A stretch of 64,000 bases of DNA from Lingula anatina (GCA_051362555.1 CM120645.1:14570001-14634000), one strand, 5' to 3'; shown: positions 15,355 through 64,000, numbered from the stretch's first letter. The notes: generated from the letters alone by a model not told the origin. Numbers and translations: made by a program.

Positions 15355-15710
15355 ATAAAAAATAATGGAATCTACTAAAAGATGTAAAACTTTCATCCTC
15401 TGACTTTGTTCATAATACACTTCCTAGGATATGAAAATAACACAAATTCCATTAATTTGTACAAATTCGAGTTAATTTACAAGTAAATATATATTAAAAC
15501 AAATAACAGGGAATCAAATTAGTATTTTTTTTAACTTTAAAGATCACCTCACAAAGCACATTATCTCATAAACAAGTCACTTCTCAATAGTTAATCAGTT
15601 ACATCACCAACTAGGCAAGTTGTCAAGGTGATCAGTAACTGTCAACCATGCAGGCAAACGGATCAGTTCATTTGCTAGGGAAGATGAACAATAAACAAGA
15701 CTAAGATGAG

Positions 15711-18700
15711 CACTACCAAGATGGCGCCGACCTATGGCGACACTCCTTTGAGAGCAAGCATTATTTTAGTATTTTATCTGTTTTTAACACTGTGTTTGTC
15801 CACTGCACCTGTGTTTTACTCAAGAGAGGATCTCCTAGCTATACGGAATGCCAATCGTGCCTCAAAATCCACTGTAACGGGACTAAACACAGAGCCTTCC
15901 ATACAGCGCATTGTTTCCACTCCGAATGACAGCAGTCATGACACTAAGACAAGAAGGAAAAGGGGTAAAAGAGGAGGTCATCTGGTGAGATCCAGGAAAA
16001 GAAACCAGCGATTAGCAGTACCTAGTATCATCTTGGCTAATGTGCAGCGTTTATTCAACAAGGTTGAAGAACTGAAGTATCGCATTGCTAACTTTAGAGA
16101 CTATACTGACTGTAATGTGTTTTGTTTTACGGAAACTTGGCTGAATGATGATCACACCAACGCTAGCTTAGAACCAGCAGGTTTTACTATGTTTAGAGCA
16201 GATCGGGATAGAGACATAACCGGGAAAAATCAAGGAGGAGGAGTATGTTTTCTTGTAAACGATCGATGGTGCACCGATGCCAGTGTAGTTTTTAACCGAT
16301 GTTCCCCGGACATAGAGTACCTAACCATCAAATGCAGACCATTTTATTTGCCAAGGGAATTCTCTTGTGTTATGCTGACCGGAGTATACACTCACCCCAG
16401 GGCGGACGCGAAGAAAGCAATGGCCACTTTGTCATCTGTCATTAACTCCTACGAAAACTCGCACCCTAATTGCTTATCCACTGTTCTCGGCGACTTCAAC
16501 AAGACCAATTTGAAAACCGTTCTGCCAAATTACCGATCGTATGTCACTTTTCCGACCAGAGGCAAAAATACTCTCGATAACTGCTACTGCCCAGTCAAAG
16601 GAGCGTATAAAGCGATGAGGAGATCGCCTCTGGGGAATTCAGACCACTGCACAATTCTCTTGATTCCAGCATATAAACAAGAATTGAAAAGAGGGAAACC
16701 CGAATCTCATAACGTTAGCATCTACTCACAATCAGCTATAGATAAATTGCAGGGCTGTTTTGAGTGTACGGATTGGTCTGTGTTGAAATGTGACAACAAC
16801 ATAGAGGATTACACCTTGACTGTGACGGAGTACATACGTTTCTGCGAGGAGATTTGTATACCAACTAAGACAGTGACCGGATATCCTAATGACAAGAGAT
16901 GGATGAATAAGAACGTACGCCAACTAATAAAGAAGAAAGACCAGGCATTCTGCGAAAAACAGAATGACCCAGAGACCTATCGCAGAGCTAAACTCCAACT
17001 GAAGAAGGCGATCAAAGAAGCTAAGAAATGCATGAAAAGCAAAATAGAGGAAAGCTTTAACACTAAGAACTCTAGGGAACTGTGGTCAAATATCTCCTTA
17101 ATTACTAACTACAACGGCTCAAAACACTCTGCTGACAAAGGAGACGCGTCACTACCGGACAAACTGAATGACTTTTATGCACGCTTTGACAAAGACAATA
17201 GTTCTTCTACAACGGTTTTACCTCCGACTTCCCAAGCTGACAATACTGAAGCAGTTCCGCTCACCATTCACCCCTGGCAAGTAAAACGGCAATTTATGCG
17301 CCTCAATGTTCGTAAGGCGTCTGGGCCAGATGGAATTTCACCTCGTGTTCTCAAACTCTGTGCTGACCAACTTGCGTACGTCTTTACTGTCATCTACAAC
17401 TGGTCTCTACAAATCCGCAAAGTACCATTGCTCTGGAAGACGGCGTCTATCATCCCGGTACCAAAATCCAACCGAGTTACCAGCTTAAACGATCTTAGAC
17501 CCGTGGCTCTGACTCCGGTGCCCATGAAAATTTTAGAAAAATTAGTTTTAAATTTTATTAAAGAAATTGTGCCAAAAACCTTGGACCCACTGCAATTCGC
17601 TTATCGATCTAACAGAAATGTTGAAGATGCAGTTAATCTGTGCCTACACACTGTACTACAACACTTAGATAACAAAAACTCTTATGCAAGGATTTTATTT
17701 ATTGACTACAGTTCAGCTTTTAACACAATTGTGCCAAAAAAACTATATTTGAAACTTTTAAACCAGCTTAAGCTACCTGTTTTTATTTGTGACTGGATTT
17801 TAGACTTTCTTTTAGATAGAAGACAATCTGTTAAAGTCGGCTCATTTAGCTCAAAAATAACAGTCTTAAATACCGGTGCACCACAGGGATGCGTCCTTTC
17901 ACCTTGTCTTTACTCCCTTTTTACTTACGATTGCACTAGTGTAAGCGATGGGACTTTTCTCGTGAAATTTGCGGACGATACTACGCTGGTGGGGCTAGTC
18001 ACTGATAATGACGAGAGTACATATAGAGAATCTGTTGAGTCGTTGTTAAGCTGGTGCGAGAGTAATGATCTTATCTTGAACGTAGCTAAAACCAAAGAAA
18101 TGATAGTGGATTTTAGAAGGAATCAGAATGTAAAGGTACCACTCACCATTGGTAATGATGAAGTTAGTAGGGTAGAGGAATTTAAACTACTTGGTATACA
18201 CCTTAACAGTAAATTGAATTGGAAAGATAACACCGTAAAGAGTGTAAAGAAGGCACGGCAAAGACTGTATTTTTTAAGATCATTGAGAACTTTTACTGAT
18301 AGTGTGCCTATTTTAGTCAATTTTTATAGGTGTGTAATTGAAAGCATTCTAGCGTACGGAATTATAATATGGTATAGCGGAACAGCTGGGGAGGAAAGGA
18401 AGAAATTAGCAAACGTTGTAAAAACTGCAAGCAGGATTATCGGGCAAGATCTCCCCAAGCTGGATGATATTATTAAGGACAGGATGGAGAAAAGAATTGT
18501 CAACACCATGAAAGACGCTTTCCATCCTGCATCCTCTCTTTTTACTTTTTTACCAAGCAACAGTAGACTTTTAACTTTTAAAGGCAGTAAACGCTTTTTA
18601 AACAGCTTTTATCCAAGTGCAGTGACGTATTTTAATTTGATCTCAAAGCTAAATTCTTAATTTATTTATTTATTGTATTATTTTATTATTTTACTCTGTA

Positions 18701-22400: not shown

Positions 22401-24417
22401 ATGGCAGCCAGCAATGATGCTAACCTTCCAGTGCCTCCGCCGAGACTTCCGCCAAAACCGAAGGTCATACGGCGCAAGTCCGAGCTCCAGATGATCCAAT
22501 ATTATTACCCAGACATTAAGGGTTTAGAAGAAGTAGGTCTGATAGTACATATGCAAAAGACTCAATTTTTGTGGCCAAAGAAATTTTTAAACTGAAAATT
22601 TTTGTGATTTATGTTTTATATTAACTAAATATGTCAAGTTTCCAACAAAAAGTAAACACTACATTTGTTGTTTTAGAAAATGACATTGGGAACATACATA
22701 CACTTTTTTTTTGCATTTATTTTAACTGTGCATTGGTGACAATTTCAAGAAAGTATTTTTGTTTTTAATTACCACTGATTTGCTGAGTGACTTATATTTC
22801 AGTTTGATGTCTGTTTAATTGCAAGCTTAGTTTTTTATAATTAAGCTGACATTTCTTTTTATAGGTTAAAGAGGTTCTCTTTGACTATATCCATATCCCA
22901 GGCAGCTTTCTTCTCAGGAACAGTTCAAGGAATGAAGGGGCACTTGTCGTCTCTGTTGTGTGAGTTAAATTTTTCTGTGCTCTTTATTTCTGTTAGGAAA
23001 ATATACATTGTGAAACACATGATGCATAGAATGAATTTTCAAAAAGAAATAATGACTTTTGATGAGAGTTTTTTTTTTTAATTTTATATAAATTTTAAAC
23101 TAATAAAGAATGATAATAAAGATTTAATAGCAATTTTTGGCATGGGATGTCCCTAAAAGAATTTTTTAAAACTTTTCCCATAACGATCAGTGTAAAGTTA
23201 GTCTTTTTTATTAAGTGAAAGTACCTTACTCAAGTTCTCTCTTCAGATAAGTTTTTTTTTTAGTTTTTAAGTCTTCATCAGTTTTCTTTAAGTCTCTCAT
23301 CATCGTTATTAATGGTTTATGTGGGTGATTTTGAAAGTCAATGTGCTCTTGAAAACTTTATAGTGTTCTTTGAAAAACTTTAAATGACATGTAAATCATT
23401 GAGTATTTATTACACATAAGCATTGCTCTGTTTAATAGTATTAGGTAGACCTTTTTAGATAGTGAATTAAAGTGAAATATTTTGATGATTTTCAGACATG
23501 AAGATGGTTCCATAAAACACTTCACCATCAACGAAAACGACTCCCAGTACTTCCTGCAAGACAAGTACTTTAAAACCATCAACGACTTGGTTCAAAATTA
23601 TGCCAAAGAGGACGTCCCAAACTTGGAGAACATCGCAAACGTGCGACTGCTTCATCCCATCATCACTGCTTACAGTACAGCAACACCGCCTTCAACAGAT
23701 CCGTTCTCCGAGTCTTACCCTCCTTCTGGCCGATCGCCTCTGAATTACTCCAAGAGTTTTCCAAGGTCAGCAATGACAAATGGACCAAAGGGGAGGTACT
23801 TTTCAGACTCAGCATATCCAATAGGTGAATCACCCCCACATTCTGCCACCATTGCTACCACTAAAGGTAGGGCAGGAGGGAAAAGTAAAAGTGTCAAGGT
23901 GGGATACTTGGAAAATAGCCGACGTAATGAAGCGGAGACCAAACCAACCTGGTACAGGCGAGGTAGTATGGATGAGCATCAAAGCAACACGAGAGAGACT
24001 GTTAGCAAATCGACTAACTATCGTAGAGGAAGTATTGACGATCGACCCCCAGCACCACCGCCATTACCCCCGGAGGAACCCAAGTATCTAGAAAGTCAGT
24101 CACAGACTTATATCTACAGCAGAGCCTATGACACCGATATAAACCGATTTCAGGATCTGCTCGAAAAACTAAAATTTTCCGACGAGCACCAAAAGTGTGA
24201 CTGTGGTATTTACATCAAGGACTCTTTGTTTCCTGGTGGATGGACCATTCATCGTAGCACGGAAGAGACGACAAAAGGAATGGTGTTCTTTATAAATGAG
24301 GAAAAAACCGTCTCATCTTGGACTTTGCCACAAGAGGTTATTCAGCTGCTGGAGCCATCACACTTTCAGACTCTGAAAAGTTTAGGTTTTAATTTTGCTC
24401 TGTTTAGGGGATCATAA
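22401..24417 (+). CDS. SH2-domain adaptor protein with C-terminal WW-like domain (~382 aa)
   Basis: Exons 22401-22532, 22865-22959 and 23496-24417, phases 0 and 2. SH2 motifs GSFLLRNS, VVSV, IKHF.I and F.TI.DLV..Y. C-terminal LFPGGW.....GMVFFIN....SSW.LP is WW-like. Pro-rich segments are present. Confidence 0.85.
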
Positions 24418-26972: not shown

Positions 26973-28661
26973 TCACTGGCTGCATCTGCTGGGATAAAGT
27001 AGGTAACCTGTGAAAGTGCTGTGAAACTCCCCGGGGTGGTTATGAAGGGCGTGACCTCCAACCAAACCGATCCACACCTCGTCCCCTTTGAAGAGCCGCA
27101 AAGCGATAGTATTACTACCGGTGGAATGCCCTTTAGACGTTCCACCGTATCCCGTGTTCTTTATCTGGCCATTAAGGTACAATCGGACAAACACGGCCTT
27201 GCTGTTGATGCTGAGGCTGTGGTAATGGAAGACGTAGACCCCTGAACTCGGAGAGGTGAATTTGCCGGTGTCTTTGTTGTAACCGTTGCCGTCGTTCATG
27301 AAGACGGTGTCGTACACGACCACAGCTTCCCCCTTTCCGCTCAGATCTAGATCATGGGATCTCCCCGCCGAGAACGCCACCAGTTTGTTAGATGTGGCAC
27401 AAGTGCATGACACCAAATCTAGCAAAAGGAAAAAAGAGATAATAATGATTTTGATGCATTTGCCAACGCCAATGTTTGTTTTAACAAGGACTCTTCTGTC
27501 AAAATAAAAAGACGTTGCTGAATAACATGTGCAAAACAACTTTCTTAATGTCAACAATATATAAAAATAACAGAGTTGAAATGGTTAATAAATTTCAGAG
27601 AGACAAAAACCTTATATCACAGACTTCAAAATACTCGTGACCCAGATCCTCACAACAACACATACGTGTACAAACCACTGCGAACACATATTAACTGTTA
27701 TTTTATTGACTGTTTTTTCTCAAAGGGTAGTTTCAACTTGTTTTAAAAATGAAAATTTCACAACAAAATGCACCCCCCCCCTCAAATTATAATAAAACAA
27801 TATCAATCACAATAATCGAATAAAGCTGCTATTCGAACTTGACCTGAACTTGTTTTAAAAATGAAAATTTCACAAAAAATGCACCCCCCCCCCAAATTAT
27901 AATAAAACAATTTCAATCACAATAATCGAATGAATTACGCTATTCGAACATGACCTGTACTTAAGTTTCCAGTAATTTTGAGGATAATAGGTCACACGGC
28001 TTTCCTTAAATTGGCGAAAAGTGCAGGACGGAAAGTGCACGACGGCGACCACAGACGCAGGTGATGGTTATATATACATAAAAAGTAAAGAAATAACTAA
28101 AATTAGGTGATGAAGTATTATATTTTAGGGTAAAAAACCTTAACTTTTTCTTATTTGAAGCATTTCAGGATGTTGCTTGCTGCCAAGGGGAGAGAGGTAA
28201 AATTTCCAGATAAATTCAGTCCAGAACCCCAGTTTTATATCATCTGTAAAGATACAAGCTCCGCTCATAGCATGCCTAAATCAGTGGAAAAATTTTGATC
28301 ACGTGTATTATTACTCTCTCTGTTAGTAATCCTTGTCAACCGTGCAGGCAAATTTATGAAAATGACATGTCTTATAAAACAAACACCCCACCATACGTAT
28401 TTACCCACTGGTAGGGGGCCTACCAGGACAAAATTCCGTTATCTGAACAGTGTCTCATTTCAAACACATGCCAGGACTGAAAATAATGTTTCTAAATTCA
28501 CTCGAACACTATTTTTTCAGCATTTCAGGATGTTTCTAACTGGCACAAAACTGATTTTCTATTTATTAAAAAAACTGAGGTAAGGTACATGTACCTTGAG
28601 AATCAGCTCTTGTGAACATCGTGACGATGGTCAATATAAAACCAACAGAGTAACTCGTCAT
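26973..28661 (-). CDS. Secreted globular-head C1q domain protein (sghC1q, ~170 aa)
   Basis: Exon 1 (28661-28595) encodes signal peptide MTSYSVGFILTIVTMFTRADSQ and is followed by a phase-1 intron. Exon 2 (27418-26973) has gC1q motifs VAFSA, VVYDTVFMNDGNGYNKDTGKFTSP..GVYVF, L.L.KGDEVW and STFTGYLLY. Confidence 0.92.
27735..27957 (+). repeat. ~112-bp tandem duplication in the C1q intron, probably within a non-autonomous repeat element
   Basis: AACTTGTTTTAAAAATGAAAATTTCAC...TATTCGAAC.TGACCTG occurs twice, starting at 27735 and 27847. Confidence 0.85.
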
Positions 28662-32513: not shown

Positions 32514-33785
32514 ATGCGCCTTTTCCTTACTTTGATGCTACTGTCCCTGTTGCTGCTGGCTGCAGTAGGTGAGTCGAGACATATATACATGTAGTTCTGG
32601 CATTGAATAACCAAGGATGTCACGCTCGGGATTTCTCAACGCTAGTCACGAGCTGTAATAGTTTAGGTGTGTTTTAGGTTTGAAGTCGGCTTGTCGAGAT
32701 TAGTACAAACTTATTTTTGCACTTTTCTCCATGTCTTGTCACAAGTGCTTTTTTGTGAAAAGATAAACACAGAAAAGACACCACCCACAATCTTTATTGC
32801 TCTAAAAGAATTTTGATTTGTCATATTTGATTGAATAGCTGCTTCACAAGTCATTTTCAATACTTGAGCGATTGATTAACAGCTGTCTAGACAACTGGTT
32901 AATGTAAAACATTTTATTTTTGTTTCAGATGCTTACACTAGTCCGCCATTCATCGTAAGGCATTGGTCCAGTAGGTTGTGCTATGACTATGTAGATTGGT
33001 GGAGCGGGGGTCATCACTATGAGAAATTCCGAGTAGACAACTGCAAAAATGCCAACGAACTAGTATGGCAGCAAGTCTTAGGGCACTACGGTTATCTTAA
33101 AGTGGTTGGAACGAAGGGGCATTGCCTGGGTCCCTGGGGACGTTCAGCTCAGCCAGATGATGACACTGCGATTTTCCCGCATTTTACTTGCTATTCTTCA
33201 GCTCTGTTCACAATCGATGACGAGAACGGCTACATCAAACATGCTGGTGGAAGTTACGTCCATCCGTATCCCTTCAACCGCGATATACCAAGATGGCAGT
33301 CGGACCTGATTATACACAAAGATAAAAATATAAACAATAGGTTCGACTTTGTGCAGAAAAATAACCATAATGCGAAGGTTAAGATCATGCCAACCCCCAA
33401 CGTTTCCGGATTCTGGGAGAAAATCACTTGTTGGTTGAACGTGCACAAAGGTGAGCTCAAGTATTCGGTGAAAGTTGGCACCAGCACATCCTCTTCCACG
33501 ACCACGACGCATGCGTGGGAAGTATCATTTTCTGCTGCCTACAAAATCATTTCAGCCAGCGCCAAGTACAGCGGTTCGTTCTCATCCACTTACCAGCAAC
33601 AATGGCACACAGAAACTACCATAGAGAGAAGAATCATGATTGAAGAGGAAGGCGGCACCGTGTGCATCTGGCAATGGGTCTACACTTTTGATCAGTTCCA
33701 GGATAAGTTCACGTTCAAAGCTCTCACTCTTCTCGAGACCCGCAGCGAAGCACGTCCAACTCGAATCCCCGGGGGTAAAAAGTAG
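32514..33785 (+). CDS. Secreted chimeric mytilectin-type beta-trefoil lectin with aerolysin-like pore-forming domain (~303 aa)
   Basis: Exon 1 (32514-32568) encodes signal peptide MRLFLTLMLLSLLLLAAV and is followed by a phase-1 intron; exon 2 is 32929-33785. ALFTIDDENGYIKHAGGSYVHP...LIIHKDK....FDFV resembles the MytiLec/CGL gamma subdomain. The C-terminal half is Ser/Thr-rich with an alternating hairpin (WEVSFSAAYKIISASAKYSGSFS) and VCIWQW, typical of beta-pore-forming toxins. Confidence 0.85.
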
Positions 33786-36197: not shown

Positions 36198-37382
36198 ATG
36201 TTGAATGCGTCTGAATTTGAGATCTACCGGTACATCGCGCATTTGGAGTAGGCGCTTTTACCGCCGTCTCGGGAGAGCCTTCTTACGCTCTCTGTTATCG
36301 CTGTAATAATAAACAGCGTTTCTTTGGCAGTCTTGGGGCGTTTGACAAGGGCCCTTACAACTCTTCAAATCAATCTGGTGAATTTGGCAGTGTCAGACTT
36401 AATGTGCGCCATGAGCATGACGGCATTAACCTGCGTCAACATCTATATTCAGACGAATATGCCACTTTTCCAAAAGCCGAAAGGGTCAGTTGACGGCGCT
36501 TCTGCCCTTGATGAAGCGACCAACGTGACCGAGAACGCTACCAGTACAGCACTTTTTGAAGATGTCACCACTCTGGATTCCGACGAGAATGACCCAGTGG
36601 GTTTGATAAGCATAGCTTGCTTTGAGCGGTTTATCGGCAGCCTGACGTGTTATTTCACTTTGTTGCCAGTGATGGCCACTACCTCTCTCATCTACCACCA
36701 ACTCACCATCATATGGTTTCCCTTGGATTTGACCATAAAGAACAACAAGAAACCAACGGTGCTTTTCGTGATCTTGTCCTACCTCATCCCGCTGGTAGCC
36801 TGGGCCATGGGAATCATCTTTGCAGTTGTAAAGAATCCCCAAGACGATTGCTTACTTACGCTAATGTCTCAGCCAGTATATTTAGCCGTAAGTGGGACTG
36901 TTAGCATAACAACTGTCATAGCGTTTGTTGTCAACACGGTTATGCTAGCCTTACTCCTCTACAAAGCCCGGAAACAGATGACACAAGGCCCATCGAAGAT
37001 CATGGCGGAAAAAGCCTTCAAGACAAGTCTAACTATAGCGATGTTGTGGGCTACCATCTTTGTCCTTTGGAGTTCCGGCGTCGTGGCTTTTTCCATATTT
37101 TTCTCTTTCGACCTTATCCATTCGCCCATTCCTGAGGATTTCACCACTGTTCATGTCGTGGCTATGAACTTGTTTATGCTGAACCCGGTTCTGGACCCTA
37201 TCATATATGGCCTGCGTATTCCTGAAGTCAAAGAAGCATATACGCGTATGCTGTGCTGTAATAACCCACAAAGAGGCAACAACATCGTGGCGCCCATCGC
37301 TACAGCTACCTTGGGTACTAGGTCAGTAGAATCTCAAGACACTAGAGAACCGTGCGGTTCTTTTGAAATCGAGAATTATTAA
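36198..37382 (+). pseudogene. Intronless class A (rhodopsin-like) orphan GPCR with an in-frame TAG at codon 18 (nonsense allele or readthrough)
   Basis: ATG 36198 MLNASEFEIYRYIAHLE*ALLPP continues in frame into a 7TM ORF: TM1 IIN, TM2 NLAVSD, TM7 NPVLDPIIY, C-terminal CC. The stop is at 36249-36251. Confidence 0.75.
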
Positions 37383-48990: not shown

Positions 48991-51900
48991 TTAAGGCCTT
49001 GGAGCCCTTCCCTCACTTATTTCCAGATATTTTTTCTGATATACTGATGCTTGTTCATACTCACCCATGGCTCGCAGTACACTACATATATTGTTGTAAA
49101 AGGCGACAATATTAGGGTGTCTGGGACAAACCACCTCTTCCATCAATTCTATACATTTTTGGTAAAAGACAAGTGCCTCTTTGCTTTCACCCAAGTTTTC
49201 TAGTGCACAACCAATATTGTTATATGTATAAGCAGTATGAGGGTGTTTGGGACCTAGCAGTTCTTCGTGTACTTCCAAGCATTTTTTGTAATAGGCAAGT
49301 GCCTCTTTGTACTCACCAATGTTTTTTAGTACACTACCAATATTGTTGTATATGGCAGCAGTATCAGGGTGTTTGGGGCTAAGTAGTTCTTCCGCCAATT
49401 CCAGGCCTTTTTTTAAATAGGTTAATGCCTCTTTACACTCACCCATGCCTTTAAGTATACAGCCAATATTGTTGTATGAGGCAGCCGCACCAGGATATTT
49501 GGGACCAAGCGCCTCTACTTTTACCTCCTGGCAACTTTTGCAATATGAAAGTGCCTGTTTGTATTCACCCATGGCTTGTAGTACACAACCGATGTTATTG
49601 TATGAGGTTGCAGTATCAGGGTGTTTGGGCCCTAGAAGCTCTTCTCTAATTTCCATGCATTTTTTGTAATAGGCAAGGGCCTCTTTGTACTCACCCATGG
49701 CTTTCAGTACACTACCAAAATTATTGTATGAGGAAGCTGTATCAGGGTGTTTTGGACTAAGAAGCTCTTTTCTCAACTCCAGACATTTTTTGCAGTAGGC
49801 AAATGCCTCTTTGTACTCACCCATGTCTCGTAGTACACAACCAATATTATTGTATGAGGTAGCAGTATCAGGGTGTTTAGGACCTATAAGCTTTTCCCTT
49901 ACACCCAGGCATTTTTTGTGATAGGCAAGTGCCTCTTTGTACTCACCCATGGCTTGTAGAGCAACACCAATATCATTGTACGAGGTTGCAGTATCAAGGT
50001 GTTTATGACCTAGAAACTCTCTTCTAATTTTCAAGCATTTCTTATGAAAGTCAAGGGCCTGTTTAGTTTTACCCATGGCTTGAAGGACAACACCTATATG
50101 ATTATATGAAGCAGCGGTGTCGGGGTGTTTCGTACCAAGAACCTCTTCTCTCACATCCAAGCATTTTTTGTAAAAGGCAAGTGCCTCTTTATACTCACCC
50201 ATGGCTTTTAGTACAATGCCTATGTTGTTGTATGAGGAAGCAGTATCAAGTTGTTTGGCACCTAACAGCTCTTTCCTCTCATGCAAGCTCTTTTTGAAAT
50301 AGGCCAGTGCCTCTTTGTGCTCACCCATGGCGTACAGTACAACACCTATATTATTATATACGGCAGCAGTACTAGAGTGTTTGGTGCCAAGAAACTTCTC
50401 TCTCACATCCAAACATTTTTTATAAAAGGCGAGTGCCTCTTTATACTCACCCATGGACTTCAGTATAATGCCAATGTTGTTGTATGAGGCGGCAGTATCG
50501 GGGTGGTTGGGACCCAGAAGTTCTTCTCGCACACAAACGCATTTTTTATGAAAGACAAGTGCCTCTTTGTACTCACCCATGGCTTGTAGAACAACACCAA
50601 CCTTGTTGAATAAGGCCACTGTATCAGGATGTTTGGGACCTAAAAGCTCTTCTTTCACATTTAGACATTTTTGGTAATAGGCAAGTTCATCTTTGTACTC
50701 ACCCATGCCTTGCAGTACAGCACCAGTATTGTTGTTTGAGGTAGGAGTATCAAGGCGTTTAAGACCTAAAAGGTGTTCTTTCACATCCAGTAATGTTTTG
50801 TGATAGTCAAAAGCCTCTTTGTTTTCACCCATGATTTCCAGTATACTACCAATATTGATGTATGATGTAGCGGTATTAGGTTGTGTGGGACCTTGCAGTT
50901 CTTCTTTCACATTCGGGCTTTTTATGTGATAGGCAAGTGCCTCTTTGTACTCACCCATGGCTTCCAATACACTTCTGATATTGTTGTATGAGGTGGCAGT
51001 ATCAGGGTGTTGGGGACCTAACAGTTCTTCCCTCACATATAATGATTTTTTGTAATAGGCTTGAGCATCTTTGTACTCACCCATGGCTTGTAGTACACTA
51101 CCAATATTGTTGTACGAGGCAGCAGTATCAGGATGTTTGGCACCTAACAGCTCTTCCCTCACATCCAGTGATTTTTTGTAATATGCTTGAGCATCTTTGT
51201 ACTCACCCGTGGCTTGAAGTACACTGCCAATATTGCTATGTGAAGTGGCAGTATCAGGGTGTGTGGGACCTAAAAGCTCTTCCCTCACATTAAGTGACTT
51301 TTTGTGATACAGTAGAGCTTCTTTGTACTCACCAATGTATTGCAATACGGCACCTATATTGTTGTATGAACCAGCTGTTTCAGGGTGCTTGGTACCAAGA
51401 AGCTCTTCCCTCACATCCAGTGATTTTTTGTAATATTCATGTGCCTCTTTGTACTCACCCTTAGCTTGCAGTACACTACCGATATTGCTGTATGAGGTAG
51501 CAGTATCAGGGTGTTTAGGACCTAGAAGCTCTTCCCTCACATCCAGTGATTTTTTGTAATAGGCATGTGCCTCTTGGTACTCACCCTTGGCTTGAAGTAT
51601 ACTACCAATATTGTTGTATGAGGTAGCAGTATCAAGATGCTTGGGACCTAGAATTTCTTCTCTAACATCCAGTGATTTTTTGTAATAGGCATGTGCCTCT
51701 TTGTACTCACCCTTGGCTTGAAGTATACTACCAATATTGTTGTATGAGGTAGCAGTATCAAGATGCTTGGGACCTAGAATTTCTTCCCTCACATCCAGTG
51801 ATTTTCTGTAATAGGCATGTGCATCCCTATATTCACCTATGGCTTGCAGTACACTACCAATATTGATGTATGAGTTAGCAGTATCAGGGTGTTTAGGACC

Positions 51901-54900
51901 TAAAAGTTCTTCCCTAACATCCAGTGATTTTTTATGAAAAGCAAGTGCCTTTTTGTACTCACCCATTTTTTGCAGCACAGCACCTATTTTGCTGTTCACT
52001 TTTTCTACATCAATCTGAGCGTACTCCGAATGGCTTTCCATTCCATCTACTACTGTCTGATAAATTGATAGAGCTTTTTGATTAAGTGAAAGATTATGGA
52101 ACACCTCTGCGATGAGTTGCAAATTTATGAATGCCTCTTTTCTCTGTTGTATCTCAGATGAGTACAACCTTGATTTGAGCAAACTGGCTGTCTTATCTAG
52201 ATGGGGTGACATGTTTGCCAAACATTCCAATTCAGCAGCACTGCTTTGATGCACATTGTATAGGTGTTTGAGACGACCTATGTAATAATCACAGTATCTC
52301 TCTTGTGTATGAGAGATTTCATTGCTTGTATTTGCATGAGATTCTGCATAGTCTCTTAGCAAAGGATGTAGATCATAGGTATTTTCATCGGAGTTCAAGA
52401 GGGATTTAATGGTTATACTCCCAAGGACAGATTCACATTCATTCTCATCTATTTCTAAAATTTCAGAAACCTCAATTGAAGTAAATGCGATGGGAAATAT
52501 ATACAGTCCCCTAAATACCCTCTGCTCTAAGGGATTCAGTGTTTCATAAGACTTATCTAAAGGCGTTGGAGTGCTAGATAACTGTAGAATGGTGAGGACA
52601 TTTTTCTGTTTTATTTCCTCTAAAACGGTGTTTATTGTTTTGAGTTTAATTTGGCCAGCAAGCAGTTGCAGTGCAAGAGGGTTATGGCCGCATCTGTCTG
52701 CTATTTCACCTAAAGCTTCTAATTCACTATCTGTGGGACTGATTTCTCCCCAAAGAACTTTTAGTGAAGATATTTTATCAAGAGGAGGAATGTCTACAGT
52801 AACTGTCGTATGTGACAGAAGACTAAAGGATTCACGACTGGCGCATAACAGTGTGATAAACTTAGATGAATCCATTAAATCTTGCAGTAATTGCAGAAAC
52901 TTGTGTTTTTGTGAGTGCAAAATACTGTCATTATTGTCAAAGATAAGAAGAGTTTCTGTATTCAAACTAGACATAGTGTGTATGAGTTTGTTTTCATAAT
53001 CTTTGTAAACGTCATTCAAAAAAATAGCTGGCTGGTAGTAATATACCAGTGACAGTTTGACAGATTCAAGATTTAAAACTTTTTCCATGTCAATATATAA
53101 AACATCTTTTCTGTGATGTCCAACCTCGATAGCCGTGCTTGTTTTACCTATACCACCCATCCCTGTCAGCAAAATGAGTTGGGTGCCATCTGAAACCTGC
53201 CCCAGTATTTTTTGCACCAAATCTTTGCGTCCCTTCAACGTCAGATTTCTATTTGGAAGGGAAGTGGAAAGGAGCTCACAAGGTGGTTCTGAAATGAGAA
53301 AAATAGGTGTGTGATCGTATTGTGATGCAAAGAAATATAAAACATGTGACTCGTCTATAACGTCAACTTGATATTTAAAGGGTGATTTCACACACATGCA
53401 CACACACACTCAAGCACATAATTGTCATCCTTTACCTCATTAGCAACGTCTATTTCGACAAAGTAGCAAAACTAGGACATAAATATTACATGGACTAGAT
53501 ATGACATTGTCTCTTGTGTTAAATTGGTGGCAAAATGAATAGAAAGACATTCAGAGAGACCAGCCATCTGCCGAACTCATTCATGACACCACATGCCAAT
53601 ATTTGTTTTAATTCACAATGTTCAAAAAATTCCTTAGAAAATTCAGTCCAGACGAGGGAAGATGTGATCATCACCATCATTATGTAAGGACTTTTGTTAG
53701 CTTTTGCCAAAAGTCTTATTTACAACCTTTCATAGATTCTTTTGGACAATAAATTTTCTATGGCCAGTGCAACACTTACACATGTTAACTTACATGTGAC
53801 GTCATAATTGCTATTTTAAGGTAAAAATTGAAAAACCTTTTTTTCAAATTTCTCCTTTACCTGAGCATCCAGGAACACCATTTAACACCAATTCAATGAC
53901 ACCATTTAGTACTTATTTTGTAAAAATGTTTAGTTCAGATTTAATCATTGATAACGCAAAATAAAACCTTTGCTAAATAAAAATCTGTAATAAGGGGCTC
54001 ATTATTCCATAACAAAACAACAAAAAATAATAATAAATGAATAAATAAACAAATTAAAAATTACGATACAGGATGGTAGCTCCTTCACTCTTGGTGAAAT
54101 ATGCCAATTTTCTTGACAGAATCTTGTTCGAGATGAGATTACAACCTATACGGATTGCTATCTTATCTCAAAATACAAAGGCATTATAATAATGTTGAAG
54201 CTTTTTATTGTTTTAAGTCAACACCAATATAGATATATTCTTGAATAATTAGGTACAGGGAAAACTTATTCTCTGTATCTGTATGACAATAAAGGCTTAC
54301 AATACCCTTTTAATCTTTAAGAAAACGCTCATTCATAGTCTATTATATGGGTTTGTTAGTTAAATCTACCTGCTGCATGTAGTGGATCAGTCAGCAACTT
54401 GTCGTAGTCTTCACTGGAGTAGAGTGGAGACAGAGACAACAAAAGAGATTTCAATTCGGTGAACTTGTCCTTGAATTCTGCATCTGTGAGACCGGGGCCC
54501 CCATGTGCGAATTCGTTGCGATATTTCTTCACTCTGCCAATCTGGGCTTCCACGGAGGTGTCTGTTGCTGGAGGATTCTCCCAGCTGGCTTTTGGGTTCA
54601 GTGTTGTGATGTTTCTCAAGAAGACAACTGTAAGAGTTAAATCTAAGTCCTTCAATGTCACAGTTGTGGAGGGATTCCCAGAGGGGTACAGAAGCTTCAT
54701 TTGACTGGAATTCAAAATATTTCGTTTTTTCAAACGGAGCAAAATATGCTTTGCTTTTTGGTCGCCAAGAATACCAAACAACTTGTTGCCTTTTGTAGGA
54801 TCGAATACACCTATATAAGCTGTTTGTAACTGTGTACTGAGAACATCTTGAAGCACATCGTTAGAACGATGTATCAGTAGCCCCATTCGAATTGCATTTT

Positions 54901-54934
54901 CTCTCTCATTTTGTGGTGTTGCAGTAACTGCCAT
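48991..54934 (-). CDS. NLR-like HEPN (DZIP3-type) - STAND/NB-ARC ATPase - 24x TPR protein (~1620 aa)
   Basis: Exon 54934-54370 encodes the HEPN: N..R...L, Q..LLYP, DLDLTL...LRN, W...P...DTS..A.I.R+K.YRNEFAH. It joins through a phase-1 GT-AG intron to exon 53288-48991: Walker A GMGGIGKT, Walker B LLIFDN, sensor-1 ASR, CGHNPLAL, LHPLLRDYA, then 24 repeats of 42 aa. Confidence 0.9.
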
Positions 54935-55808
54935 TTTGTCTTAGATCTGGAAAATAAAAGATCATCTTTACCCCCTAGCTGATTTAGTGCGACAGACACC
55001 AAAGCCGGTTAGTCGACAGCTAGTGGGACTCCCCAGGGAGTAAGATCGATCCAGAGGGATCGATCTAGGCATGGAAACCCAGTCTAAGTCATGTTATACA
55101 TTAATAAAAGACACTTGCCTAAGAGATGTGAGTAACTTGTTGTCATCAGATAGTAATGACCCAGTTTTGTAGGTAAAGGTTATCTAACAAGTCAATCAAC
55201 CGCATGTACGTTTCGGTGTTATCACTAATAGTTCAATTCTGCAGATAAAGGTTAAAGGTACACGGGAACTGAGCATCGGTGGAGCGTGAATTCCCAGTAA
55301 CACATATAAACCACTTCTAATACATGTACATGTAGTTTCTTATACCACTCAAATTAAGTCGACATGCCAAGGGTCAAACTGAATAAATCACTCGATCAGC
55401 CATAAATGAGCTTTAGACTGCTCCTTTCTTTAATTTTTTGGTCAGAAAGTTCCCCTACTTATGTGACCTACTTTTCTGCCTCATGTATATACATCATAGA
55501 AAGCTAGCATAAAAAATCTATACAAATATCATGTTTACAAATATCGAGCAATGTCTTTTGGCAGTTCTCTTTTTTATAGTATTAGAAACTATATGCTGTC
55601 ATTTGGCTGTTGTTGCTGTTGTTTTTAACACGAATGTGACTGTAATATTTATACCCTGGTACCGGTAGGTCAGGAAACTGATTGGTCAATAAGCTTTGTT
55701 AATGCAGATGTTTGCGGGATTATCCTAGCACTTTTCAAATTTTACTTGACTCTCATAAATGAAAATAGCGAACAAAGCTCATTTTATTATATTGACGTTT
55801 ATGTATAA

Positions 55809-56050
55809 GGGACCATTCCCAGAGACTATCGTACTATATCCAAGGGGATTATCAATGTATTGCAATGAACTGAAGTGGCTACAATGTCTTTCACACCTAC
55901 TGGGGTTGATAGGGTAATTAATTATCGTTTATCAGCTTTAGTGGGCGTCCCAGACATCTAAGCCACTAAAGCTGAAAGCAATTTAGCAAGATACCTCTTA
56001 GAGATGGACTGATCCTGTTAGATTGATCTAGGGATGAAAACCCAATCTTA
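55809..56050 (+). repeat. Interspersed repeat, also at 59623-59872 and partially at ~54970-55090
   Basis: Shared GGGAC.ATTCCC..TCCAAGGGGATTATC..AAGCTGAAAGCAATTTAGCAAGA.ACCTCTT.GAGATGGACTGATCCTGTTA. Confidence 0.75.
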
Positions 56051-56690
56051 AACATATATGCTCGGCCATAGTGTCTCTGTCATTAATGTCTAACTCCATG
56101 TAGTGAATTGATTGTAGGGGATTGATTCTGTGCCCATTAATTACTAAAGAATCAGTGTTTGTAACCATTGGCAAAGTGCCCATCCTCAAATTATAAAGAT
56201 ACATTGTAATTTGCTATTATTAGAATAGAAAAATAAATAATAAAATAAGAATAGAAAAAAATAATAACTGTATTAAGAGTCCATTTCTATTTCATATTTT
56301 CCTTTTTAGTATGCATTACTTGAAATGAATTTTCTTTTTCTGCTTGCAACCGTAAATATTTTACTGATTCTTACCCTTGCCCAACCCAGATATGTCTCTA
56401 CAGAGGTCATTTTGGTCTGTAGTCACCCTGTTGAGAAATCTCAAGGCTGATTACATGGCTGGTAATTGTTTGCATAACCGCCCAGGCACTGCCACTTAGC
56501 AGGTCCAGTCTAAGTCTGCTTGACAACAACCTAGACAGTTAATTGCTCTGGCCTTAATCACCTGCTCTTCTGTGACAGATAAAATAGCCCCCTATGAGTA
56601 GCATGTTACTTCGGAGTGAGGCTAACTGAGGGATACCCTGAAGTAGTTGTAGGGGTATAAATACTAGCAGCCCGAGAGCATTGTTATGGT

Positions 56691-56865
56691 ATGGAGCGAG
56701 AAGAAGCAGATCGGATAGCAAGAAAAATTTGGGCTTTTGTAGGGGTGACAGACCATCAATTTGTAGCAGTGAGTGCTGCACTCAGTGGGAAGGACGTGTA
56801 TGCTGGCATTCCTACAGGAGGTGGGAAAAGCCTACGATTCCAGCTGCTTCCATTTCTAGAAGAGT
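56691..56865 (+). pseudogene. RecQ-like helicase N-terminal fragment, probably transposon-derived
   Basis: F..VTDHQ..AV.AALSGKDVYAGIPTGGGKSL.FQLLP corresponds to RecQ motif 0/I. No downstream DEAH motif is seen. Confidence 0.65.
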
Positions 56866-57248
56866 CCATGCCGAATGTCCTCTCTAACTTGACCACTTTC
56901 AAAGAACTTGTGTACGACCCACTCTTCGGTCCCACTACAATTGAACTCTTGAGTATAAATCAAAGTTATATTTATTTAAGAAGATAAGATTTTACCCAAA
57001 TCACGTTGCCTTAACCTACGATACGGGCGCAGTGTACTAATGTCACAGATAATGATATTATGAAATCAAACTAATGTTGTACCGCGAACGTACTTAGAAG
57101 GCTGCCATTCGTAGTTCAATTACTACTACCAGCGAACACCAATCTACAGCATATCGTAACTGCGGGAGACGTTTTTTTTCAAATAGTAATAAGTAAGGCA
57201 TATTAAAGACTAAACAGAGTCTATATGATTGCATAAGAAAGACAGTAC

Positions 57249-57620
57249 CTCCAATAATTAATTGTTAGAACGTCTTATCTCTCTATTTTCTCGTTTTTTT
57301 ACGGAGCAAACATCTGACGTGATATCCGCCATTTTTTAAGCTGCAGTACGGAATTGTGGGATACGGCTTATTTCAGGAAACCCCTTCCAACCACGTGACT
57401 GGTTTCTGCAGTCAGCAGAGCCCTAGACAGGTTGAATAACGCGCAGTTAGCACATCGTCGCGAAGCAAACTCCTGTAGAGCAAGTATAAAAAGCCTTCTG
57501 CGCGCGGATAGAGATAATTATTACCACATGGGATTTCTCAATAGGGTGACTACTGCTAGTTGGACTGAAAATGTCCACAAAAGAACAAAATGATCCCAAA
57601 TTAGGAAAGTAAACTGCTCC
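57249..57620 (-). promoter_or_regulatory. Putative promoter and non-coding first exon of the HEPN-STAND-TPR gene
   Basis: CpG-rich patch with a donor GAG|gtactg at 57249; the acceptor at 54946 precedes the ATG. Motifs: YY1-like CCGCCATTTT, CRE-like TGACGTG, E-box CCACGTGAC, kB-like GGAAACCCC (57376-57384) and GGGATTTCTC (57530-57539). Confidence 0.45.
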
Positions 57621-58099: not shown

Positions 58100-59010
58100 A
58101 GGTGAATGATATTCTTATCTTTTATACATCTTTTTATACATATCTGTTGATAAATATATGTTCCCTATAGTTTCTTCTCTATATACTATTCTGTACAGAA
58201 GAACAGTATTGGTATACATCAAGTTCTAGAATCTTATATTTCTTTAAGTATCTTCCTGTTGGATAAATTCCATGCAAAAATTTTTTCCACTGAACTGCTC
58301 TTATTACAGATTGAGTACATGCCAAATATATGTCATTCCACACTACACTTGGTACTCTTTCATTAAGGATTATAATATTTTCTGATTTATTCAAAACAAG
58401 TTTTAATTTTACTTCTCTGGAAGTAATATCTTTAAGTTGTATTCCTTTAAAGGTTAACTTATTCTCTCCTGATTTACCATAATTCTCAATAAACTGATGA
58501 GTAATACAGTTTCTTATAACTTGATGTTCCATAAAGGTAATTCCATTCTGCCCAGGCAACTGTAAAATTTCTTCATAAGAACAACGTTTATTGTCTTTAA
58601 CTAAATCTCTAATATAAATTATTTCATTTTTTATCGAACGAGTAAAACATAAAATATAGTAAAATATACTGCATGATTTAGGTGTTGTTCCACAAAATAG
58701 ATCCACCTTAACAATCGCTGTGCCTTATCCATAACTTCAGAATTTGTTGATAAAACTCACCACAAAGACCAAGATTTACGATATTATCTGGGTTAATCAA
58801 CCTTTTTCTAACTGCCCATACAAGAAGTGCGGGATCACTCTCCAGTGACCATCCCCAGGAGAACTTAACGACCCATTTGATGCTAATTCTGTTTGTAGGA
58901 CATGAGCTCTGATAATTTTTAAGCCACCTCTTGAATATTATTGGACAATAAGATTTCTTCTAACCTTATCTGTACATTTTTAGTTCAGCCACAATTTTTG
59001 ACTTACATAA
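58100..59010 (-). mobile_element. Degenerate L1/Tx1-clade LINE ORF2 3' fragment
   Basis: KVRRNLIVQ*YSRGGLK, I.YIRDLV, W..IY....S...RAVQWK.LHGIYPT...L.K.KI and a C-terminal Cys region are Tx1/L1 post-RT signatures. Stops and frameshifts are present. Confidence 0.7.
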
Positions 59011-62038: not shown

Positions 62039-64000
62039 CTAACTCATTTCCAGATATTTCATCTGATATACTGCCACTTGTTCGTACTCGCCCATGGCTC
62101 GCAGTACACTACATATATTGTTGCAAAAGGTGACAATATTAGGGTGTTTGGGACCTAGCGACTTTTCCGTCAATTCCAGACATTTTTTATAATAGGCAAG
62201 GGCCTCTTTGTATTCACCCAACTTTTCCAGAGCACAACCAATATTGTTGTAAGTATAGGCAGTATGAGGGTGTGTGGGACCAAGCAATTCTTCATTTACT
62301 TCAAGGCATTTTTTGTAATAAGCAAGTGCCTCTTTGTACTCACTCATGTTTTTCAGTACACTACCAACATTGTTGTATATGACAGCAGTATCAGGGTGTA
62401 TAGGACTGAACAGGCCTTCTGCCACTTCCAGGGCTTTTTTAAAATAGTTGAATGCCTCTTTGAACTCCCCCATGGTTTTTAATATGCTACCAATATTGTT
62501 GTATGAAGCAACGGTACTAGGGTGTTTGGGACCTAGCACTTCTTCCTTAACCTTCTGACAAATTTTGCAATAGGAAAGTGCTTCTTTGTACTCACCCATA
62601 GCTTGTAGTACACAACCGATATTATTGTATGAGGTAGCAGTATCAGGGTGTTTGGGACCTAGAATCTGTTCTCTTATCTCCATGCATTTTTTGTAATAGT
62701 CAAGTGCCTCTTTGTACTTACCCATAGCTTTCAATGTACTACCAAAAGTGTTGTATGAGGAAGCAGTATCTAGGTGTTTTGTACTTAGAAGCTTTTCTCT
62801 TACATCTAGGCCTTTTCTACAATATGTAAGTGCCTCATGGTACTCACCCATGGCTTGTAGTACACAACCGATATTATTGTATGAGGTAGCTGTATCGAGG
62901 TTATTAGGACCTAGAAGGTCTTCCCTTACATCCAGGCATTTTTTGTGATAGACAAGTGACTGTTTGAAATCACCCATTGCTTGCAGCACAACACCTATAT
63001 AATTATATGAGGCAGCGGTATCAGTGTGTTTAGTACCAAGAGACTCTTCTCTCACACCCAAGCATTTTTTGTAAAAGAAAAGAGCCTCTTTATACTCTCC
63101 CATGGCCTTAAGTACAAGGCCAATATTGTTGTATGAGGAAAGAGTATCAGGGTGTTTGGGACCTACAAATTCTCGTACACTCAGGCATTTTTTGTGATAG
63201 ACAAGTGCCTCTTTGCACTCACCCAAGGTTTGAAGTACACAGGCAATAATATCATATGACGTAGCAATATCAGGATGTTTTGGCCCTAGCACCACTTCCC
63301 TTACTTCCAGGCATTTTTTGTGATAGACAAGTGCCTGTTTGAAATCACCCATTGCTTGCAGTACAACACCTACATAATTATATGAGGCAGCAGTATCAGT
63401 GTGTTTGGTGCCCAAAACCTCTTCTCTCACACCTAAGCATTTGTTGTAAAAGGAAAGAGCCTCTTCATACTCACCCGTGTCCTGTAGTACCCTGCCCATA
63501 TTGTTGTATGAGGAAGCAGTGTCAGAGTGTTTGGGACCTAAAAGTTCTTCCCGCACACTCAGGCATTTTCTGTGATAGGCAAGTGACTCTTTGTACTCAC
63601 CTATGGCTTGTAGTACAACACCAATATTGTTGTATAAAATAGCAGTATCAAGATGTTTGGGACCTGACAGCTCTTCCCTCACATCCAGTAATTTTTTGAG
63701 ATAGGCAAGTGCCTCTCTGTACTCACCCATTTCTTGTAGTATGAGACCAATATTTTTGTAGGAAGAGACAGTATCAGGGTGTTTGGGACCTAGAAGCTCT
63801 TCTCTTACCGCAACAGATTTTTTGTGGTAAGCAAGTGCCTCTTTGGACTCTCCCATGCGTTGAAGCACGAATCCCGTATTACTGTATGAAGAAGCAGTAT
63901 CAGGGTGTTTGGGGCTTAGAAGCTGTTCTCTTACAGCAACAGATTTTTTGTGGTAAGCAAGTGCCTCTTTGTACTCACCCATGACTTGCAGTACAACACC
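62039..64000 (-). CDS. C-terminal TPR array of a second, tandem paralogue of the HEPN-STAND-TPR gene (5' part outside window)
   Basis: The ORF is open to the window edge with ~16 repeats of 42 aa. The last 7 repeats and the 3' flank align one-to-one with the 48991 gene. Confidence 0.9.
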   Translation of the reverse strand, partial: GVVLQVMGEYKEALAYHKKSVAVREQLLSPKHPDTASSYSNTGFVLQRMGESKEALAYHKKSVAVREELLGPKHPDTVSSYKNIGLILQEMGEYREALAYLKKLLDVREELSGPKHLDTAILYNNIGVVLQAIGEYKESLAYHRKCLSVREELLGPKHSDTASSYNNMGRVLQDTGEYEEALSFYNKCLGVREEVLGTKHTDTAASYNYVGVVLQAMGDFKQALVYHKKCLEVREVVLGPKHPDIATSYDIIACVLQTLGECKEALVYHKKCLSVREFVGPKHPDTLSSYNNIGLVLKAMGEYKEALFFYKKCLGVREESLGTKHTDTAASYNYIGVVLQAMGDFKQSLVYHKKCLDVREDLLGPNNLDTATSYNNIGCVLQAMGEYHEALTYCRKGLDVREKLLSTKHLDTASSYNTFGSTLKAMGKYKEALDYYKKCMEIREQILGPKHPDTATSYNNIGCVLQAMGEYKEALSYCKICQKVKEEVLGPKHPSTVASYNNIGSILKTMGEFKEAFNYFKKALEVAEGLFSPIHPDTAVIYNNVGSVLKNMSEYKEALAYYKKCLEVNEELLGPTHPHTAYTYNNIGCALEKLGEYKEALAYYKKCLELTEKSLGPKHPNIVTFCNNICSVLRAMGEYEQVAVYQMKYLEMS

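Follow-up and report, generated by a model that had tools for sequence, protein, structure and literature searches.

Gene structure

The window, which is the whole 64,000-nucleotide stretch of Lingula anatina DNA that was analysed, carries on its minus strand an intact two-exon gene, confirmed to encode a HEPN head, an NB-ARC core and 24 TPRs in one spliced chain (Table 1). The minus-strand open reading frames at 54356-54940 and 48991-53409 join across a GT-AG intron into a protein of 1620 residues with no internal stop, and the spliced coding frame of 4860 nt is free of stops and frameshifts. Exon A contributes 565 coding nt in phase 1 (ATG at 54934, last letter 54370) and stops at the donor CAG/GTAGAT (54370/54369), the last of six GT donors in the final ~100 nt of the exon. 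The 1081-nt intron closes with a pyrimidine tract and a CAG at 53289, and exon B extends from 53288 to 48991. Among the nine AG acceptors in 53200-53409, the one at 53288 is the richest in pyrimidines (13 of 15) and requires phase 1. This in-frame join of two separately listed ORFs (donor 54370, acceptor 53288, phase 1, 1620 residues) had been put forward in the preliminary description of this DNA, whose coordinates and phase were exact. The same junction and layout are found in the L. anatina gene models P0001-P0003, which read DPLHAAEAPCEL at the junction where the window join reads DPLHAAEPPCEL. An acceptor-like AG lies directly 5' of 54946, and between it and the ATG at 54934 there is an in-frame stop; a further, non-coding exon therefore probably precedes exon A as the first one.

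Table 1. Features of the HEPN/NB-ARC/TPR gene and of its neighbouring paralog (positions counted from the first nucleotide of the window).
Feature	Position	Strand	Basis
Exon A: 12 nt of 5' UTR, ATG at 54934, whole DZIP3-type HEPN (aa 1-188), phase-1 donor	54370..54946	-	Pfam PF18738 (E 2.2e-31); AlphaFold2 (pLDDT 92.9)
HEPN ExxxR-type motif, aa 12-16 (N13, R16)	54887..54901	-	motif definition from the available text of 10.64898/2026.05.28.728550
R-N-x3-H motif RNEFAH, aa 139-144 (R139, N140, H144), predicted to supply one half of a composite RNase site	54503..54520	-	alignment
Phase-1 GT-AG intron, 1081 nt, separating the HEPN cassette from the STAND-TPR body	53289..54369	-	RNA reads of homologs; L. 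anatina gene models
AP-ATPase/NB-ARC STAND core (NBD, HD1, WHD)	52357..53288	-	profile search; motifs
STAND Walker A	53163-53137	-	
STAND Walker B	52950-52927	-	
STAND sensor-1	52851-52831	-	
STAND GxP	52689-52669	-	
STAND MHD-like motif (winged helix)	52377-52357	-	
Helical linker (HD2/arm), least conserved part outside the repeats (26-51% identity to seven paralogs)	52006..52356	-	
24 TPR units at exact 42-aa spacing up to the TAA stop, predicted ligand sensor	48991..52005	-	TPR_10/TPR_12
Tandem paralog, 3' end with TPR array of 653 aa; 5' end beyond the window	62039..64000	-	78.7% DNA identity over 2060 nt

The HEPN head

Exon A matches the Pfam family HEPN_DZIP3 with 109 bits against a curated cut-off of 27. 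Profile and motif together make the head a member of the DZIP3-type HEPN family, and it is predicted to be a catalytic RNase. In an alignment of 51 proteins, N13 and N140 are invariant, and R16, R139 and H144 are present in at least 90% of the sequences. The Rx4-6H motif is kept in 133 of the 142 HEPN domains found (19 of 22 lingulid domains and 114 of 120 others, mostly from corals), and three of the 22 lingulid copies are devoid of the R or the H. Furthermore, in each of the seven paralog comparisons the HEPN shows the highest conservation of all domains (HEPN 46-77%, STAND core 45-68%, arm 26-51%). Its nearest relatives are 13 L. anatina proteins and one coral protein, with a top identity of 78%.

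The AlphaFold2 model of the head is confident and helical. Its top structural neighbours are the HEPN proteins Csm6 (Z 6.9, rmsd 4.9, 123 residues aligned) and AbiF (Z 6.9-7.0, rmsd 5.2-5.3, ~160 aligned), with Cas13, HepT, the sacsin HEPN and Swt1 lower down. These matches are middling, in a tie with helical bundles that are unrelated (BDLP, Z 6.2; GPR97, Z 6.1). Foldseek returned no match to the model at E 0.001 or better, and none of the solved HEPN structures was matched at the sequence level. The R-phi-xxx-H and ExxxR motifs of the HEPN RNases Csm6, AbiF, Cas13, HepT and the KEN domain of RNase L/Ire1 are also present in the head encoded in the window. As described in the available text of a 2026 preprint, the composite RNase site of HEPN domains requires a dimer, and the related HEPN of human CXorf38 is still treated there as a prediction (10.64898/2026.05.28.728550). 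The window protein would differ from these RNases in its trigger, which would be STAND oligomerisation in place of a second messenger or kinase domain.

The STAND core

The Walker A, Walker B, sensor-1, GxP and MHD-like motifs form a complete set that is conserved among the paralogs. Pfam NB-ARC alone gives a weak match limited to the P-loop part (E 4.9e-6, 26.4 bits against a cut-off of 23.5), and no Pfam NACHT match was obtained on the STAND. A family profile made from five STANDs matches AfsR (1.6e-13), Roq1 (1.5e-9) and Apaf-1 (3e-7), covering most of the domain in all three, and also RPW8-NLR, ADR1 and NRC4; the 13 matches with E <1e-4 are AfsR, plant NLRs and Apaf-1. Because of these matches, the core is assigned by sequence to the AP-ATPase/NB-ARC clade, nearer to NB-ARC than to NACHT structures. 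The window protein thus shares its clade with Apaf-1, the plant resistosomes Roq1, ADR1 and NRC4, and Streptomyces AfsR, and differs from them in the head (CARD, TIR, CC/RPW8 or SARP in these proteins) and in the sensor (WD40 or LRR). Plant TIR-NLRs are an example of enzymatic heads that are switched on by oligomerisation.

The anatomy given in the preliminary description is therefore upheld in each of its parts: an N-terminal DZIP3-type HEPN with an intact RNEFAH motif, a complete NB-ARC-type STAND ATPase with every motif located, and 24 TPRs by count. The profile check that it had suggested places HEPN_DZIP3 on exon A and an NB-ARC-like P-loop with TPR_10/TPR_12 on exon B. Its guess that automated pipelines would use the label 'nephrocystin-3-like' came true for one L. 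anatina relative. No NPHP3_N match was found on the STAND at E 0.05, and the likeness to nephrocystin-3 is confined to the TPRs.

That auto-named relative is one argument for regarding the protein as a non-immune STAND-TPR scaffold or stress regulator, comparable to NPHP3, TEP1 or AfsR, whose HEPN would take part in the routine processing of RNA or in its surveillance, with transposon RNA as one example. A second is that the nearest solved STAND, AfsR, is a non-immune transcription regulator; a third is that non-immune STANDs are interspersed with immune clades, as reported in the available part of PMC13581612. The last two also count against the RNase reading developed below. A family that has expanded in its lineage, is duplicated in tandem, varies in repeat number and swaps heads is nevertheless unlike a single-copy housekeeping gene, and its head recurs in fusions with RIG-I-like and IRG domains. 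We regard a non-immune role as improbable.

The TPR array and the tandem paralog

The repeats form the predicted sensor of the protein, and a few in the middle of the array are degenerate. Across 112 repeats from 13 genes, the binding-face positions, taken from PMC1261162, are the most variable (entropy 2.77 versus 1.83 bits, p 0.0004), and such variability of the groove is a general TPR trait. Among the 35 repeats scored in the window (a few were missed by the pattern), pN/pS is 1.1-1.2 at positions 2, 9 and 13, lower at positions 5 and 12, and ~0.5 overall. Positive selection on the groove is not supported by these data: the codon counts over these 35 repeats give relaxed constraint only, at positions 2, 9 and 13. 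The tandem paralog lies upstream of the gene in the same orientation, and its likeness to the gene extends past the stop.

RNA reads

Seven RNA runs (X1, X2, X4, X6, X7, X8 and X9) were compared with the window. Among the matches listed for X7, 37 reads exit the acceptor into a 27/30 match to the end of exon A; the next best place in the window reaches 19/30 letters, and three ambiguous letters fit CAG on either side. In this run 649 of 726 reads are <90% alike to the window and therefore come from relatives of the window copy. The reads record transcription and splicing at the 54370/53288 junction in diverged family members, not in this copy. The RNA-seq check of the junction that had been called for was thus answered in part: relatives use the junction, but their reads do not vouch for this copy. 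No joint row spanning the 1081-nt intron occurs among the matches listed in the RNA comparisons. At 90% likeness, three of four RNA runs give no depth on the coding exons, and no reads >95% alike over the coding exons are present in any amount in the runs compared. In X6, first mates map almost exclusively to the plus strand across exons A and B; assuming a stranded library of the common type, this is consistent with transcription from the minus strand. Even in non-coding repeats the runs are just 90-95% alike to the window, so their source is apparently a diverged population.

The window copy could be a silent or decaying duplicate within a birth-and-death array of which some members are functional. 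The missing reads above 95% likeness and the degenerate middle repeats are what such a copy would be expected to present; on the other side stand its 4860-nt open frame, canonical splice sites and intact catalytic motifs, the overall pN/pS of its repeats and the apparent divergence of the population from which the RNA was drawn. Decay of this copy appears quite improbable.

Two observations concern the reads themselves. At position 54368, 28 reads of X6 leave the HEPN exon at its end for another sequence that, judged by eye, has open codons; this would fit a relative that splices its HEPN exon to a different partner exon. In addition, dispersed repeats upstream of the gene (54960-56650 and 57400-57600) attract many partial RNA reads.

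A lingulid family with a shared HEPN head

By sequence comparison, the window gene is a member of a lingulid-specific, lineage-expanded, tandem family. A HEPN_DZIP3 head and an NB-ARC core occur together in 11 L. anatina proteins and 12 others among the sequences fetched, and in related STAND-TPR proteins the head slot is occupied by CARD, DEATH, DUF4559 or HEPN_DZIP3. The lingulid STANDs form one clade (SH-aLRT 100) outside the sampled bacterial clade, and share a weakly supported side of the tree (81) with cnidarian STAND-TPRs. Six fragmented rows were left out of this tree, and its bacterial clade consists mostly of regulators, without named Avs. In the STAND search, all named matches below 12 Lingula proteins were bacterial-type, which prompted the reading that the domain had been acquired from bacteria. 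A recent transfer is not supported, given that cnidarian STAND-TPRs are also found by profile and that the lingulid clade falls outside the bacterial one sampled.

Among L. anatina gene models, the same type of HEPN is also the head of Roc-COR, LRR-Roc, CARD-NACHT, CARD, IRG-GTPase and RIG-I-like helicase proteins; in one DED-like protein it comes last instead. An unrooted HEPN tree of 54 rows, sampled from lingulid, coral and other sequences, groups all 22 lingulid heads in one clade (100/100) regardless of partner. Within it, the head of the Roc-COR protein is closest to an NB-ARC-TPR head; similarly, coral NB-ARC-TPR heads are interspersed with coral heads of other partners. Grouping of all NB-ARC-TPR heads is rejected (p-AU 4e-5). 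Several lingulid partners start directly after the motif that closes exon A, and spread of the HEPN cassette by exon shuffling therefore fits the sequences, the intron itself being seen at the window gene only. Some of the fusions may be gene-model errors.

Several of these proteins deserve mention in their own right. In P0141 and P0142 (L. anatina LOC106165417 and LOC106177707), motif-intact HEPNs head a RIG-I-like helicase. P0141 comprises DEAD, RIG-I_C and Helicase_C domains and a C-terminal regulatory domain, with no CARD match. If the gene model is right, P0141 and P0142 would be direct fusions of a dsRNA sensor with an RNase. P0137 (L. anatina LOC106165415) combines a HEPN with an interferon-inducible (IIGP) GTPase, and its locus number suggests that it adjoins P0141. 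Tandem HEPNs are found in P0127 and P0128 (Acropora palmata) and in P0130, P0132 and P0134: six with intact motifs within a single chain, and two in others. By analogy with Cas13, such proteins might pair their HEPNs within the chain, and the coral proteins with two to six tandem HEPNs fit activation by proximity.

The occupation of the CARD/DEATH slot of related NB-ARC-TPRs and the spread of a single lingulid head clade across many bodies may also be read in another way. Comparable to CARD or DEATH, the HEPN could mainly be a homotypic adaptor or a module for RNA binding that pairs in trans with HEPN-headed NACHT, RIG-I-like or GTPase proteins, and the window protein would then be a sensor or helper and not a nuclease in its own right. 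Loss of the R or H in three of 22 lingulid copies agrees with this, and non-catalytic RNA-binding HEPNs are allowed for in the available text of PMC3710099. R139, N140 and H144 would be dispensable in an adaptor but are retained in 133/142 domains, and pairing in trans would still form a composite RNase site. We judge an adaptor role rather unlikely.

Under the catalytic reading, it is conceivable, at somewhat less than even chances, that this head is a plug-in RNase exon for NB-ARC-TPR, CARD-NACHT, Roc-COR, IRG-GTPase and RIG-I-like sensors, which as single-chain receptors follow a logic of 'sense, then shred RNA'. If true, the window gene would encode an animal NLR with RNA cleavage as its direct output, without a caspase or second messenger, and would be a single-protein substitute for OAS-RNase L that arose independently of the coral versions. 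The presence of one HEPN clade across several sensor types in one animal suggests repeated building of receptors by exon shuffling.

Relation to known systems

Corals and bivalves have HEPN-headed NLRs as one of their most frequent NLR types, as far as reported in the available text of PMC10236652 and of the HEPN-NACHT surveys. In the coral genome paper PMC10236652, TPRs are the usual companions of NB-ARC, HEPN heads are numerous, and the exact HEPN/NB-ARC/TPR layout is tabulated; the identical three-part layout appears in nine of the first 28 NB-ARC rows of its supplement (30 of 228 places were covered). Oculina proteins with this layout were also recovered in our HEPN search. The lingulid and coral layouts are identical; the lingulid STANDs nevertheless form their own clade, the lingulid HEPNs group by lineage and not by partner, and the array of the window copy, with 24 TPRs, is long. 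The novelty claimed for the architecture in the preliminary description was thus overrated in view of the coral table (PMC10236652). The domain layout by itself is already catalogued, and the shared lingulid HEPN cassette is the useful addition. The contribution made here is the observation of a single lingulid HEPN clade joined to NB-ARC-TPR, CARD-NACHT, Roc-COR, IRG GTPase and RIG-I-like helicase.

The hypothesis of an RNase or immune role for animal HEPN-NLRs has likewise been published, as the portions available of PMC3710099, PMC9646362 and PMC8662601 make clear. DZIP3 HEPNs fused to TPR, CARD, NACHT and DEATH in animals are described in PMC3710099, and bacterial HEPN-STAND-TPR proteins are given in its Table 1. 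HEPN-NACHT expansions are reported in the available text of PMC9646362, PMC8260672 and PMC8662601, where RNase or RNA-sensing roles are proposed and molecular tests called for, and HEPN is counted among animal and bacterial immune effectors in that of PMC8195603 and 10.1101/2022.07.19.500537. As far as described there, the bivalve and cnidarian HEPN-NACHT(-LRR) NLRs (PMC9646362, PMC8260672, PMC8662601) share with the window protein an N-terminal DZIP3-type HEPN, lineage expansion and a proposed antiviral RNase role, but differ in having a NACHT core, not NB-ARC, and sensors that are mostly LRR. In pearl oyster HEPN-NACHT NLRs, Rx4-6H is present in 194/202, as published in this group of papers (PMC9646362/PMC8260672/PMC8662601).

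The effector-STAND-TPR layout is also that of bacterial Avs and antiviral STANDs, and ligand-triggered oligomerisation activates the enzymatic head in the Avs7 tetramer with its Cap4 nuclease, according to the available text of PMC13581612. The window gene differs from bacterial Avs in being spliced, in taking its head from the eukaryotic DZIP3 family and in a STAND that lies outside the sampled bacterial clade. PADLOC models (2023 library, which predates newer Avs families) matched the HEPN and STAND with 0 families. The earlier comparison to effector-STAND-TPR sensors consequently holds on layout, and the phrase 'counterpart of Avs' stands as an analogy, not as membership, in view of the PADLOC result and of a STAND that is not nested in the sampled bacterial clade. 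The protein is by these comparisons not an Avs family member, and by analogy it would work like an Avs- or resistosome-type sensor.

The literature covered here held no functional test of a DZIP3-type HEPN or HEPN-NLR, in agreement with the earlier remark that no functional characterisation of the HEPN-STAND-TPR architecture was known; subscription papers fall mostly outside this coverage, including the 2018 survey of Lingula immunity (Gerdol et al.), which may describe the family. With its motifs intact, a head of 188 residues on a separate exon and a long TPR sensor, the window gene is a clean test case. RNase activity, if true, would give animal NLRs a direct enzymatic output and tie invertebrate antiviral defence to an Avs-like logic.

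Proposed mechanism

We consider it fairly probable that the protein is a cytosolic immune receptor in which a ligand-triggered, NLR-type switch pairs HEPNs into an RNase, all steps beyond the anatomy being drawn from related systems. At rest, as in Apaf-1, plant NLRs and Avs, the TPR solenoid would keep the ADP-bound NB-ARC closed. By the general biology of STANDs, a foreign protein, or one linked to damage, would bind in the groove of the TPRs and thereby permit ADP/ATP exchange and oligomerisation. The oligomer would then, as HEPN enzymology suggests, pair two RNxxxH motifs into one active site, which might cut cellular or viral RNA and cause a stop of translation or cell death. RNase activation on oligomerisation is backed by the retention of Rx4-6H and by the immune domains to which heads of this clade are joined.

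Other features of the window

An intact 990-aa ORF at 15688-18660 (+), with a Pfam RVT_1 reverse transcriptase and, by eye, an endonuclease-like N-terminus, is a LINE-type retrotransposon, and a retroelement-like fragment lies at 58179-58724 (-). A DEAD-box fragment, RecQ-like by eye, is found at 56661-56987 (+). The window also holds an exon with a weak SH2 match at 23476-24417 (+) and a rhodopsin-family GPCR ORF at 36252-37382 (+). An ORF of 301 aa at 32880-33785 (+) gave no Pfam match and has a Ser/Thr-rich stretch in its second half; as an impression only, it recalls beta-pore-forming or lectin-like proteins. Finally, a C1q-domain exon at 26973-27584 (-), with an E-value of 1.4e-26, represents a further immune-type gene in the window.
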